A DNA stretch of 21,777 bases from Promethearchaeota archaeon (GTDB lineage Archaea > Asgardarchaeota > Lokiarchaeia > Sigyniarchaeales > SOKP01). Below the pieces are notes generated by a model. It made no database searches. It was given only the letters and a program-made list of their open reading frames with translations, and was not told where the DNA came from. The DNA is taken from NCBI GenBank assembly GCA_008080735.1, contig SHMW01000064.1:1-21777 (forward strand). Direction: 5' to 3'. A program made the translations under genes and the position numbers. Below are positions 5,634 through 21,556 of the stretch, one piece after another (within the stretch, counting starts at the first letter, position 1; each line of letters starts with the position of its first letter).

Positions 5634-6182
5634 ATGACTATAAGCATACCCAAGGTATTATATAAGAACAGTATTAGCAGCATTCTTGACGAGATAAGGA
5701 GCTCTTACGGTACACTAACCCGAAGAGGTTATATCTATGGACTCATCGCAGTTGATCAAGACGCAAAAATCATCGCGGTGGATTCACGATTCGATCGGAG
5801 TTTGAATTATTGGGATCTCTCCTCCATCGGTGCTGCTCTCTACGGAGTTGCACGGCAAGGTCAAGATTTTTTCGACGCCGACTACTTGGATCGGGCTTCC
5901 ATCATTTATAATAACCTACGATTATTTGTCAAATCCATCACCAATGTCCAGCTAAATCCACAAGAAAAGCGTGAAATTCTCATAATATTACTTAGCGACA
6001 ATCAAGTCAATATTGGTGTAGCAGTGCTCCAGATGGAACGATTTGCGATGAAGATTAAGACGCAAATCGAAAGCTCGGGCTCCATCAAGAACACACTCAA
6101 AATGAACGAAAGAGAATTGAAAGAACATATTAAAACCTTGAAAAGCGAGATATTCGGCAATAAAATCAGCTCTATTGAGTAA
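5634..6182 (+). CDS. mglB: Roadblock/LC7-domain protein, MglB-like
   Basis: LIAVDQDAKIIA...LSSIGAALYGVARQ...LIILLSDNQVNIGVAVLQM matches the roadblock pattern. Lies directly upstream of an MglA-like GTPase. Confidence 0.8.
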   Translation: MTISIPKVLYKNSISSILDEIRSSYGTLTRRGYIYGLIAVDQDAKIIAVDSRFDRSLNYWDLSSIGAALYGVARQGQDFFDADYLDRASIIYNNLRLFVKSITNVQLNPQEKREILIILLSDNQVNIGVAVLQMERFAMKIKTQIESSGSIKNTLKMNERELKEHIKTLKSEIFGNKISSIE

Positions 6183-6190
6183 GGAGGTGA
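6182..6190 (+). promoter_or_regulatory. Shine-Dalgarno site AGGAGGTGA for the mglA-like gene
   Basis: Abuts the mglB stop and lies 11 nt before the in-frame ATG at 6202. Confidence 0.6.
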
Positions 6191-6201
6191 GACATTTAAC
6201 A

Positions 6202-6855
6202 ATGCTAAAAAATGAGATAGAGGATGATCATGTAAACGATATTCAACGGAACGCAGGCGGCATGATTCTCGGCAATATGATCCAACTCAAGATCGTGTAT
6301 TGGGGTCCTGGAGAGTCTGGTAAGACCACCAACTTTCTACGTCTCAAGGAAAAGTTCGACAGCAGACGTATCACCCGCGGATATTCCATCGAAACTAACG
6401 ACGGCAGGACTTTATGGCAAGATTCAATGTTCCTCTCATTCGATGCCAGTATCAATAAAAGAAATTATTCCATCATCGTCCATGTGGTCACATGCACAGG
6501 GCAAGAGCGATTTCTCTCTACAAGGGAATATGTGTTAGAAGGTGCGGATGGGATTATGTTTGTCGCAGATTCACAGCCAGAATTATTAGAGCAGAATAAA
6601 CGGAGTTTTCGGGAGCTGCTTAGTTTCGCTAGCCCTCGGCGTATCCCTTATATCATTCAATTGAATAAGCGGGATATCGAAGAAAAAGTAAGTATAACCG
6701 AATTCAAGCGGCAATTGGGGCTTCCAAGTGAAAATCAATATGCTGATGGGACCTTAGTGGTATATCCAGTTATCGCGCTCACGGGGCAAAACGTAGCAGA
6801 AACCTTCCGAGACCTTTTAGGGCAAGTTCTCTTCAATGTATTTAATTTTTCTTAG
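6202..6855 (+). CDS. mglA: Small Ras-superfamily GTPase, MglA family
   Basis: KIVYWGPGESGKTTN (G1), GRTL (MglA intrinsic Arg finger), TCTGQ (MglA-type TxxGQ instead of DxxG), GADGIMFVADSQ, NKRD (G4), IALTG (G5). Confidence 0.9.
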   Translation: MLKNEIEDDHVNDIQRNAGGMILGNMIQLKIVYWGPGESGKTTNFLRLKEKFDSRRITRGYSIETNDGRTLWQDSMFLSFDASINKRNYSIIVHVVTCTGQERFLSTREYVLEGADGIMFVADSQPELLEQNKRSFRELLSFASPRRIPYIIQLNKRDIEEKVSITEFKRQLGLPSENQYADGTLVVYPVIALTGQNVAETFRDLLGQVLFNVFNFS

Positions 6856-7244: not shown

Positions 7245-8498
7245 ATGGACACCGAATACGATTTTCTCACACCTGAGTTCTTGCACTTGATATTTTTTAA
7301 GCAGAAAAATATCGTGATATTTCCGCATGTTGACCTTAAGCACCTCAGGGTGCTGGAAGCCTTCACGGTCGGCTATAATCTCATCGATCTTGAAGCCACT
7401 GCACTTTATAATATCCGCGAGATGGTAAGAAGTGACGCAGAATCCTATTCCCAAACGCCGAATTACCATCTCATCTACAACCTGGATAAAGAGAAAGCAA
7501 AGCAGCTGTTGGATCTTGAAAATGCCCACATGATATTAAATGTTAACCAGAATTGTTCTGATCTCATTGATTTTGCCCACGAAAGCTTCATCTTTTATAA
7601 TAAGAAGAGCGCGAAATTTCTCAATTACGAGTTCACTCAAACGGATCTGAAAATGGAAAAAATAATACTCAGCCTCGCCAAGACGTATGAAATGATCCGA
7701 GAGAAGCTCCAAGGGATCAAAAGTACTGCCACCAAAATCTATTCGACTTTGATGAATAATCCCGAATCTTTTGACATTGATAGACTCATAAATGCTTATA
7801 CATTAACAGAACAAGAGAGCCTCATCGAATTTACGGAAAATTATTATGATATCATCATCCCAGACGACGATGGAATTGAAAATGAACAAGAAAAAGATTC
7901 CATTTCAAGAGAGAGCCGAGCCTATGGAAACACCAACCAAAACCGAGAAGAGTCAATTCCTAAGTCTATGGGTATGGCAACTCGCGCACTTGATTTCTCT
8001 GATGATTTTGAAATAATTAAAAATCAGAATAAACATATTTTTCGGGTATTTCTTCACGAGCTTGATGAATATCGCCAAAAAGAGATAAATAATAGTAATT
8101 TAGATCTTAACCAATTTTTCGTGCCAAATGATCTCTATAATTATTTACGGCGTCATCATTGGTCTGAAGGAATTCCAGAAAGTTTTTTGAATCAATGGAA
8201 AGCGGCCCTGAATAGAAATGGGGGCCTATCTCAAGAGGAACTATTGGATTTCGAGAATATTCTTCGGGGGTTGGATATCAAAAATGACCTTATTCATCAA
8301 ATAATTGATGGCAGTGAGTCGAAAATACAAAAAATCAATGAAAGAAGTAATAATAATGCTTTACCCAGTCAGCTAAATGAAAATGACCAAAATTTGGGAG
8401 ATTATGAAATTCCTCCAGTCTCAGATTTCGCTCGTTTTAAAGCATGGATGATAAATACATTAGATGCCATTGAGAAAAAATTGAAAAATTCAACATAA
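7245..8498 (+). CDS. Hypothetical protein (417 aa)
   Basis: Long ORF with ATG. Globular N- and C-terminal parts joined by acidic/Asn-rich linkers. No motif recognised. Confidence 0.8.
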   Translation: MDTEYDFLTPEFLHLIFFKQKNIVIFPHVDLKHLRVLEAFTVGYNLIDLEATALYNIREMVRSDAESYSQTPNYHLIYNLDKEKAKQLLDLENAHMILNVNQNCSDLIDFAHESFIFYNKKSAKFLNYEFTQTDLKMEKIILSLAKTYEMIREKLQGIKSTATKIYSTLMNNPESFDIDRLINAYTLTEQESLIEFTENYYDIIIPDDDGIENEQEKDSISRESRAYGNTNQNREESIPKSMGMATRALDFSDDFEIIKNQNKHIFRVFLHELDEYRQKEINNSNLDLNQFFVPNDLYNYLRRHHWSEGIPESFLNQWKAALNRNGGLSQEELLDFENILRGLDIKNDLIHQIIDGSESKIQKINERSNNNALPSQLNENDQNLGDYEIPPVSDFARFKAWMINTLDAIEKKLKNST

Positions 8499-8738
8499 TA
8501 TTTAGAAGGAAACTTATATGGGTTTATACCATAAAGGAGAAGGTTAGCACAAAATGATGAAATGGTGCTACAAATAAGGAAGGTAAACAGAATCATCAAC
8601 AAAAAGAACAAATGCATTCTCATGAGTCCTTTGTTTTAATTCACTGATAATTAATTGTGTAAAGACATGAGATATTTCTTCTAAATTAGTTTTTCATCCG
8701 TTATACTAAAAAATTTTCTCTTGGACAAAAATGATTAA

Positions 8739-8746
8739 TTTAAATA
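8739..8746 (+). promoter_or_regulatory. Candidate TATA box (TTTAAATA) for the structured element at 8770
   Basis: Centre ~27 nt upstream of G8770, with purine-rich BRE-like sequence upstream. The AT-rich background lowers specificity. Confidence 0.4.
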
Positions 8747-8769
8747 AGGGTAAAATAATATTAAGTATA

Positions 8770-8908
8770 GAAGAACAGAATCAGTCTTATTCCCTGGATT
8801 TTTGTCTTTTGGTTAAACACACTTTTCAGTGTGTTATTTAACGCCCTCCTCCTCCTTTTCATTTGAATAGGTATGGATTACTGTTCTTCGTTTATCTCTT
8901 TCTTTTTT
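8770..8908 (+). ncRNA. Candidate structured non-coding RNA of unknown family
   Basis: Nested stems GAAGAACAG(8770-78)/CTGTTCTTC(8881-89), AATC/GATT, CTTATTC(8786-92)/GAATAGG(8865-71). Inner hairpin AACACACT-TTTC-AGTGTGTT (8816-35). Followed by a T-rich tract. Confidence 0.5.
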
Positions 8909-9042
8909 AATGTTTATTCTAAAAGGAGAAAATATAATGAATATAAAAATACTAATTAACTGACGCAAAATTGAAGGAAAAATATATCATTTAGGCTCCC
9001 ACAAAATCGCAAAATAAATAATAAGAATAAAAAGGCTTAAAT

Positions 9043-9816
9043 CTATGTTATACTATTCTTTTCCAATACCCAGTTGTCAATCAGAAAAAGCTGGGACTCT
9101 TTTGCTTGGTCATTAAACGTGTTATGGATTGTAGATTTGGGAATCCACGCTTCTTTTTCATTCGGAAATTCAAGTAAGAGAGCTTTATTCGTAGAGCGTT
9201 TTAACACTCCATTTATTTTTATCACGTCTTTTATCGTCTTCAATTGATTTGATGGTCCGGGATTAGAGGGAGGAGTGAGGGCGATGATTTCCTCTTCTAT
9301 ATATGAATTTGTATTAGTAATTTGTCTTTCAGCTGGTTTTGGATATGATTGTTTTGAAGAGTTGTTGTTTGTTTTTGATGGATTATCTTGATAGGAATTG
9401 GACGCATTAGAATTTAGTTCAGAAATGGTGGCATATTCGATTTTCTCTTCTAGGATATGTTCTAAAAGGAGACGCATGATTTCGATTTGAGCCTCATCAA
9501 GCATTTTCGAATAGTCACCTATATTAACCCAGATGATATTTTCCTGCCAATTAAGTGAGATCTGTGTATTCGAACCGTTATATTTATGATAAGTCGTCCA
9601 AGAATTTTTTTCTTTACGGAGGACTTTTAAAATCATTACCAATTCGTCCAAGGAGACCTTGATGACTTTTCCTTCGCCTTGAGAAGGCTTTTCCCAAATG
9701 TTTCCTCTTTTACGCTTTATACACCGAAAAAAAAGCCAATCTTCTTTTCTTGAGGTACTCTGAATCATAAGAGCCGTGTTTTGTCCGAAAAAACTCCTAT
9801 TATGCGAATTAACCAT
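9043..9816 (-). CDS. Hypothetical protein: Whirly/PC4-like N-terminal domain, N/S/P-rich linker and small beta-rich C-terminal domain
   Basis: WEKPSQGEGKVIKVSLDELVMILKVL...WTTYHKY recalls Whirly YDWxxKqxfsLsxxEigxll...effH. C-terminal TNKALLL...WIPKSTI...IDNWVLEK. Confidence 0.75.
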   Translation of the reverse strand: MVNSHNRSFFGQNTALMIQSTSRKEDWLFFRCIKRKRGNIWEKPSQGEGKVIKVSLDELVMILKVLRKEKNSWTTYHKYNGSNTQISLNWQENIIWVNIGDYSKMLDEAQIEIMRLLLEHILEEKIEYATISELNSNASNSYQDNPSKTNNNSSKQSYPKPAERQITNTNSYIEEEIIALTPPSNPGPSNQLKTIKDVIKINGVLKRSTNKALLLEFPNEKEAWIPKSTIHNTFNDQAKESQLFLIDNWVLEKNSIT

Positions 9817-17425: not shown

Positions 17426-17701
17426 TTAGCCTGCTAAATTCACAAATATAACATTGTCGCCCCGTACTACTATGTTTCCGAGATCCTCGTGTTCCTCTCG
17501 TATATTGCCTTCCTCATCTTGATATTCGAATATCTGTGAAGCGGAGGCTAATGAAAGGTTCAAATGTTCATCAAATCCTTCTAACTTCCCTCTAAAAAGC
17601 CGATTCCTTTTCACCTTAATAAGGATGATCTTATTTATGCTGTTCTTCAAGTAATCAATTGGACGGGCTTGCTGCCTATAATTTTGTCGTCTTTCTACCA
17701 T
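17426..17701 (-). CDS. Sm/Lsm-family protein (SmAP)
   Basis: Sm1 motif PIDYL...FRGKLEGFDEHLNLSL and Sm2 motif LGNIVVRGDNVIFV. Confidence 0.96.
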   Translation of the reverse strand: MVERRQNYRQQARPIDYLKNSINKIILIKVKRNRLFRGKLEGFDEHLNLSLASASQIFEYQDEEGNIREEHEDLGNIVVRGDNVIFVNLAG

Positions 17702-21293: not shown

Positions 21294-21556
21294 CTATATA
21301 TTTTTTTTTTGAAGCTATATTCTTTGTCTTTCCAACATCTCCTGGAAATCGCTCTCTGGTGATATCATCTATTTCAATCTTCTTTCTGAAGCTATATTCT
21401 TTGTCTTCTCAGTCTGAATTTCTAGGCGGGTTACTAAGCCTTATTATTTCAATCTTCTTTCTGAAGCTATATTCTTTGTCTTAGTAAAGAAGCCGACTTG
21501 GGAAGAATTGGAAACAAAAATTTCAATCTTCTTTCTGAATTTAAACCAAATTGAAT
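21294..21556 (-). CRISPR. CRISPR mini-array: two full 37-nt repeats, two half-conserved terminal repeats, three spacers
   Basis: Full repeats ATTTCAATCTTCTTTCTGAAGCTATATTCTTTGTCTT at 21371-21407 and 21446-21482. Partial copies at 21310-21330 and 21520-21539. Unique spacers of 40, 38 and 37 nt. On the minus strand the repeat ends CTTC-AGAAA-GAAG-ATTGAAAT (hairpin plus 8-nt handle). Confidence 0.9.

Follow-up and report, generated by a model that had tools for sequence, protein, structure and literature searches.

No known organisms are more closely related to eukaryotes than the Asgard archaea and, to our knowledge, little of their non-coding RNA has been catalogued in Rfam. Among the small RNAs described elsewhere, Y RNAs keep a conserved Ro-binding stem, bacterial sibling small RNAs with C-rich seeds block translation by pairing with GGAGG-type ribosome-binding sites or G-rich mRNA, and U7 works with the CPSF73 nuclease, the archaeal homologue of which, aCPSF1, terminates transcription. 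The consensus of the Sm site reads AAUUUUUGG in spliceosomal RNAs and AAUUUGUCU in U7 (PMC7026596). The RNA described here lies in a 21,777-nt stretch of a Lokiarchaeial genome, the whole of which is referred to as the window, and it resembles the Sm-class snRNAs, U7 especially, in its U-rich single-stranded site flanked by helices, in the presence of a pyrimidine-rich single strand elsewhere in the molecule (5' CUCUUU in U7) and in its size of 100-145 nt. It differs from them in the position of the site, which comes after the 5' arm of the closing stem and not before a 3'-terminal hairpin; ACAGAGA, branch-point and histone-downstream-element pairing elements were not recognised by eye, Rfam snRNA models match no form of the RNA, and the resemblance spans 7-9 bases. 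With sibling small RNAs associated with SmAP/LSm or Hfq it shares the existence of several paralogues, a conserved single-stranded motif set within variable helices, and a promoter and U-tract belonging to each gene. With Y RNAs (RF00019) and bacterial Y-like RNAs it shares paired ends around an interior rich in pyrimidines, and an oligo-U tail after them.

The element is housed in a 544-nt gap (8499-9042) between two convergent open reading frames, 7245-8498 (+) and 9043-9816 (-), neither of which has a Pfam match. That it belongs to a real RNA gene of ~120-140 bases, a member of a Lokiarchaeial family with a U-rich core, is in our judgement highly probable. The gene runs from 8770 to ~8908 (+), with its own TATA-like promoter box and a likely U-tract terminator, and is one of five paralogues. 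The fuller account, in which the small structured non-coding RNA made from it would also work in a particle with protein, falls slightly short of an even call. The gap, stems, hairpin, pyrimidine tract and flanks that a first-pass annotation had described here were all found where it had placed them (Table 1), and the feature that defines the RNA is the invariant U-rich stretch at 8793-8812, which had been handled there as a minor hairpin.

Table 1. Parts of the RNA element in the window, with the basis on which each was placed.
Feature	Positions	Strand	Basis
TATA-like promoter box TTTAAATAAGGG	8739..8751	+	sequence; ~19 nt before first paired base
Closing stem P1, 5' arm (9-bp outer stem plus AAUC)	8770..8782	+	MFE fold
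Invariant U-rich core CCUGGAUUUUUGUCUUUUGG, with heptad AUUUUUG	8793..8812	+	own-genome copies and order-wide search
Hairpin P2: 8 bp, 8816-8823/8828-8835, lengthened by GUUA/UAAC	8812..8842	+	MFE fold and R1 alignment
Unpaired C/U-rich tract CCCUCCUCCUCCUUUUC	8844..8860	+	mean unpaired probability 0.87 over 70 members
Extended closing stem, 3' arm	8864..8889	+	MFE fold; family hairpin P3 absent from window copy
U-rich 3' flank ending in UUUCUUUUUU, likely terminator	8890..8908	+	sequence; U-run without CC

Folded as the plus strand, positions 8765-8895 (131 nt) reach a minimum free energy of -32.9 kcal/mol; the mean for shuffles is -20.0 +/- 2.8 (z -4.61), and none of 200 shuffles folds equally well, which agrees with the structured RNA proposed at first pass. 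The minus strand also folds well (z -3.83), so the strand is not given by the fold alone. The closing stem of the window copy is built from 9 bp (8770-8778/8881-8889), followed by AAUC/GAUU (8779-8782/8876-8879) and by a third part, an interrupted helix at ~8784-8792/8864-8873; the covariance model of the family, R1, places 8779-8788 as P1. A small GGAU/GUCU hairpin is a weak prediction of the fold, and because its bases are invariant it lies beyond covariation testing.

The RNA is not confined to a single locus. Across the full assembly (4.15 Mb, 140 contigs, 33.6% G+C), the core 20-mer CCTGGATTTTTGTCTTTTGG (8793-8812) has perfect copies on C18, C33 and C51 and a copy with a single mismatch on contig C57, and R1 recovers exactly five copies in the genome (E 6.5e-21 to 7.9e-8). 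All five loci have the same layout, in which a closing stem formed by the two ends is accompanied by the core, a hairpin directly 3' of it, a C/U-rich stretch and a U-rich stretch. The closing stems differ in sequence in every copy and are complementary in each, and the same holds for the hairpins. The layout of the family is thus P1, formed from both ends, the invariant single-stranded U-rich stretch, P2, a linker consisting of UGAUUU(C) plus a C-rich tract, and usually a third hairpin, P3. The C-rich tract is kept as GCCCUCCUCCCCCUAU in the canonical copies of f1, the taxonomic family to which this genome belongs, and is only weak in subfamily B and several paralogues. Two loci (L128 and L137) carry an extra hairpin of ~30 nt between GCCCUCC and CCCCCU, which splits the tract into two conserved halves.

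The window copy is one of the more divergent members. It scores 52.2 bits against R1 (E 3.6e-12 in the window, 6.8e-10 genome-wide), the best copy in the genome scoring 94 bits, and its alignment deletes 20 model positions corresponding to P3 (GACC...GGUC type). P3 is also absent in paralogues L015, L017 and L018, and is therefore typical of the family and not obligatory. The window and C57 copies are each other's nearest relatives and alone have a GAAGAAC-type stem in common. An orthologue of the window copy with its own stem was not found by blastn in six other species of the genus, which points to a young or fast-evolving paralogue. Its low score and the lack of both P3 and the CC of the family's 3' flank could also mark a paralogue in decay, which we think rather unlikely.

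Covariation also supports the fold. A seed alignment of 67 members made with MAFFT (A1) was scored against the 20 pairs of a structure drawn by hand. Of its cells 91.2% are paired, and 19/20 pairs have changed on both sides, while controls in which the partner was slid by 1-3 columns give 36-43% pairing. A second set (A2) comprised 75 members from metagenome contigs that had been kept outside the building of R1; 94.4% of its cells are paired and 20/20 pairs are compensatory, in an alignment which was fitted to R1 and so leans towards the structure. Its members were retrieved by exact match to the core 19-mer that had also served for the seed set. Slid controls give 35-43%, and A2 contains 184 double-change cells vs 45.5 in shuffles. 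The metagenome scan yielded genomic contigs only. Compensatory changes occur in all 10 P1 pairs and all 6 P2 pairs of the family. The fold is therefore more than chance, and the stand-alone structured RNA gene suggested by the first-pass annotation has helices that are held in homologues by compensatory changes. Since the members of all alignments were gathered via the core pattern, the invariance of the core within them comes partly from selection; it rests instead on the search at ≤2 mismatches and on the R1 matches, and core variants are rare in both.

Multiple copies would also be expected of a DNA-level repeat, such as a MITE or another mobile element. A short leaderless mRNA encoding a peptide of 12-14 residues (MTPA.PWIFVFW) is a related thought, given that an ATG stands at or near the start of P1 in ~68% of members and that some of them encode the same short peptide. 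This explanation is extremely improbable, and the frame counts together with covariation have already refuted it. A MITE-like repeat with target-site duplications had been named at first pass as something that would refute the RNA reading; the conserved terminal inverted repeats of a MITE are lacking: the termini differ between copies and co-vary within each copy, the interior alone is kept, and the canonical copy is syntenic in ~50/155 loci, where it adjoins a radical-SAM gene. As for the micro-ORF, 45/141 members have no ATG, the window copy has none upstream of its core, the reading frame of the core varies (42, 39 and 15 members in the three frames) and the core shows no variation at what would be its third codon positions. 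An excess of G-U pairs on one strand is a further point against both versions. Another paralogue is flanked by genes for an NYN RNase and a Hel308-type helicase, and no neighbour gene is common to all copies.

The same G-U excess bears on orientation. Read as the plus strand, the helices contain 99 G-U vs 24 A-C combinations in A1 and 56 vs 22 in A2, and this excess, an upstream box of the AAAUAGGG type and a downstream U-tract all favour an RNA on the plus strand. Members are A-rich 5' of P1, and in a subset of the metagenome members a AAUAAAAUAGGG-type box begins -26 to -19 from P1 (43 motif matches in 65 upstream flanks), with AA..AU after it immediately before the stem. The 3' flank follows the consensus N-CC-Y-UUU, with C at 72% and 84%. 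In the window copy TTTAAATAAGGG stands at the family distance, its first part, TTTAAATA (8739-8746), being centred ~27 nt 5' of 8770, and TTTCTTTTTT occupies 8899-8908 as a long U-run 3' of the closing stem, with the CC of the consensus absent. The TATA-like box and U-tract reported at first pass therefore recur at the same distances in other members. Because of strand bias, flank signals and synteny, we regard the copies as RNA genes that are stable and passed on vertically, and not as mobile DNA. One group of paralogues among the metagenome loci has a second motif, TTGACAAGAATTATCATAG...ATTATGAT, with a palindromic half-site, ~35-58 nt upstream of P1, possibly a transcription-factor site peculiar to that paralogue.

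The CC in the 3' flank raises the thought of a tRNA-like minihelix, in which the closing stem of 10-13 bp and N-CC would mimic an acceptor stem with its discriminator base, and RNase P, RNase Z or the CCA-adding enzyme would act on the RNA or be diverted by it as a decoy. A U before P1 and an A after it often lengthen the stem, in keeping with this. Position 4 of the flank, however, is C or U and not A, the CC is missing from the window copy and may be no more than part of the terminator, and ARAGORN finds no tRNA, so that we consider such mimicry very improbable.

The family is specific to Lokiarchaeia. Allowing ≤2 mismatches, the core occurs in 132/154 genomes of the order and in 126/134 genomes of f1, with 1-18 copies each, and a reversed-pattern control gives near 0. 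R1 has matches in 25/25 sampled f1 genomes, and in 125 other sampled genomes of the phylum it yields a single weak match (E 7.4e-4). The copies in this and other Asgard genomes on which the first-pass proposal had been made to depend thus exist, as four more loci here and, with compensatory changes, in other f1 genomes. Public contigs with the core are nearly all labelled Promethearchaeota/Promethearchaeia (= Lokiarchaeia). One locus labelled Odinarchaeota (L082) has coordinates identical to those of a match in an f1 genome (G128:C82:662-780), and we infer that the other non-Loki Asgard labels on core-bearing contigs are submitters' misassignments too. A sister family, f3, which includes the single-contig genomes G009 and G014, has a variant core, UUAUUUUGUCUUUUUGGAUG, exact in 11/14 genomes with 1-6 copies; G009 and G014 have 3-5 copies. 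The f3 form keeps P1, P2 and P3 and has an additional hairpin in which CCUCC pairs with GGAGG; f1 and f3 have in common AUUUUGUCUUUU(U)GG and UGAUUU after P2. Neither core form was found in 12 other genomes of the class.

The family is also uncatalogued. The first-pass annotation had recognised no known RNA layout, and Rfam 15 gives no match for the window at the gathering score, no meaningful one at E≤10, and none for the canonical, subfamily B and f3 copies (E≤1), which also argues against homology to U1, U2, U4, U5 or U7 in any of these four forms. A description of the RNA was not found in the literature searched. Candidates among known RNAs were also considered individually. A tRNA is rejected on the ARAGORN result. 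Box C/D RNAs and K-turns were judged by eye: the flanks of P2 show no consistent G-A pairs between families, and there is no Rfam match. Canonical f1 copies have CUGA after P2 and no matching GA on the 5' strand (GGUAG), f3 has GGAUG/CUUGA, and the window copy has neither a C box of the RUGAUGA type nor a CUGA D box. A BHB processing motif at P1 was rejected since the flanks are not complementary (by eye). A 5S rRNA was considered because RF00001 finds none in this genome and the RNA has three helices and ~120 nt; it was rejected because f1 genomes carry a separate, permuted 5S-like gene.

That 5S-like gene lies outside the window and is an observation in its own right. RF00001 has sub-threshold matches in 2/3 near-complete f1 genomes, at G147:C1:120664-120846 and G020:C10 ~292840-293160 (loci L221 and L220). 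The weak matches span the 5' half only, the 3' half stands directly upstream, the halves are joined via a UUC(G) loop closing helix I, and the unit is flanked by a 13-bp inverted repeat. From its sequence, the unit looks like a circularly permuted 5S gene. A blastn search of the assembly studied here finds no copy of it.

The likeness to Y RNAs noted at the outset had led the first-pass annotation to compare the RNA with that class, and a scaffold bound by a Ro60- or vault-type protein would fit an architecture of paired ends, pyrimidine-rich interior and 3' U-tract. Membership in the Y RNAs does not hold up. PF05731 (TROVE/Ro60) is matched in Deinococcus and Bacteroides controls and has 0 matches in this genome, which is 93% complete, so that Ro60 is largely refuted; there is no Rfam match; and, unlike the Ro-binding helix of Y RNAs, the sequence of the closing stem is not conserved and varies freely between copies. 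A Y-RNA-like or vault-RNA-like scaffold is accordingly an extremely remote prospect.

A more serious competitor is a trans-acting antisense regulator, in which the C-rich tract (CCCUCCUCC...) would pair with GGAGG-type ribosome-binding sites or G-rich mRNA and block translation. The tract had been called anti-Shine-Dalgarno-like at first pass; its exposure stands, with a predicted unpaired probability of 0.87, it is conserved in the canonical f1 copies, and the family is multi-copy as sibling small RNAs are. The proposed pairing fares less well, as complementary sites are no commoner than in the reversed control: counts of 10-nt complementary seeds in this genome, set against the reversed tract, are 267 vs 289, 344 vs 416 and 966 vs 1012. 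The top complementary sites are Glu-rich coding repeats, the CCUCC of f3 is taken up by GGAGG in its local hairpin, and the tract is weak in subfamily B and several paralogues. Unlike sibling small RNAs, moreover, the family has target complementarity that does not exceed control, a core far longer and more invariant than a typical seed, and conservation across two taxonomic families with syntenic orthologues; its most conserved part is this U-rich core and not the C-rich tract. An antisense regulator of this kind is therefore unlikely, and the anti-Shine-Dalgarno reading, held at that same low level, is ranked second, after a particle with an Sm-like protein.

The reading that we place first, though at well below even odds, is that of a particle RNA whose U-rich site binds protein, most likely an Sm-like (SmAP/LSm) ring. 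The RNA would work as a stable RNA-protein particle, and its putative protein-binding site would be the invariant U-rich stretch that separates two helices, AUUUUUG-UCUUUUGG. The core is invariant even where the nearby helices drift, and no site complementary to it at ≤3 mismatches exists elsewhere in this genome. This invariance, the missing complementary partner and the placement between two helices suit a protein-binding site better than an antisense seed. AUUUUUG stands at 8798-8804 between P1 and P2, and the core also contains UUUGUCU. In the predicted fold, 8798-8804 has the form of an Sm site, a single-stranded A-U4-6-G with helices on either side. Against this, the predicted unpaired probability of the core is just 0.58, and the resemblance is that of a short U-rich motif within a 34% G+C genome. 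The Sm-site-like part of the RNA, for which the first pass had suggested binding of Sm-type proteins, is the U-rich stretch 8793-8812 and not the C-rich tract. The exposed C-rich tract in f1 might additionally contact G-rich RNA, an addition that we regard as doubtful.

Candidate proteins for such a ring are encoded. LSM genes number four in this genome, and one lies inside the window (17429-17701, -); orthologues of the window-encoded LSm with 67-92% identity occur in 23/25 sampled f1 genomes. Proteins ≥67% identical to it are found only within f1, and a SmAP1-like control shows the same family-level gap; LSm genes are present in nearly all sampled Asgard genomes. Since LSm is near-universal in the Asgard sample and the SmAP1-like control behaves alike, the co-occurrence says nothing on mechanism. 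The window LSm/Sm-like protein itself has 90 residues, and its Sm fold contains an acidic insertion, EYQDEEGNIREEHEDLG.

A stronger version of the particle reading can be drawn by analogy. The RNA might be an archaeal RNA of Sm-class ribonucleoproteins, in which AUUUUUGUCU would nucleate a SmAP/LSm ring and the pyrimidine strand would guide the particle to purine-rich RNA. The family would then be analogous in function, or even related, to eukaryotic Sm-class RNAs, U7 among them. We consider this improbable.

Two other features of the window can be recorded. An Arf/Ras-like small GTPase gene of a type typical of Asgard archaea lies at 6175-6855 (+; Pfam Arf, 1.2e-9). A mini CRISPR-like array occupies 21300-21541, with full 37-nt repeats at 21371-21407 and 21446-21482, one degenerate and one truncated repeat, and spacers of 37-40 nt; in the minus-strand reading the repeat closes with ...ATTGAAAT.

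Even without a function, R1 fills an annotation gap in Lokiarchaeial genomes. Few 20-nt stretches outside rRNA and tRNA are as invariant as the core, which resembles an Sm site. If the RNA does form a particle with an Sm-like protein, it would give the question of Sm-ring function before spliceosomes a tangible molecule to work on, and if the Sm-class reading were true, such an RNA would have been found in the archaeal group closest to eukaryotes.
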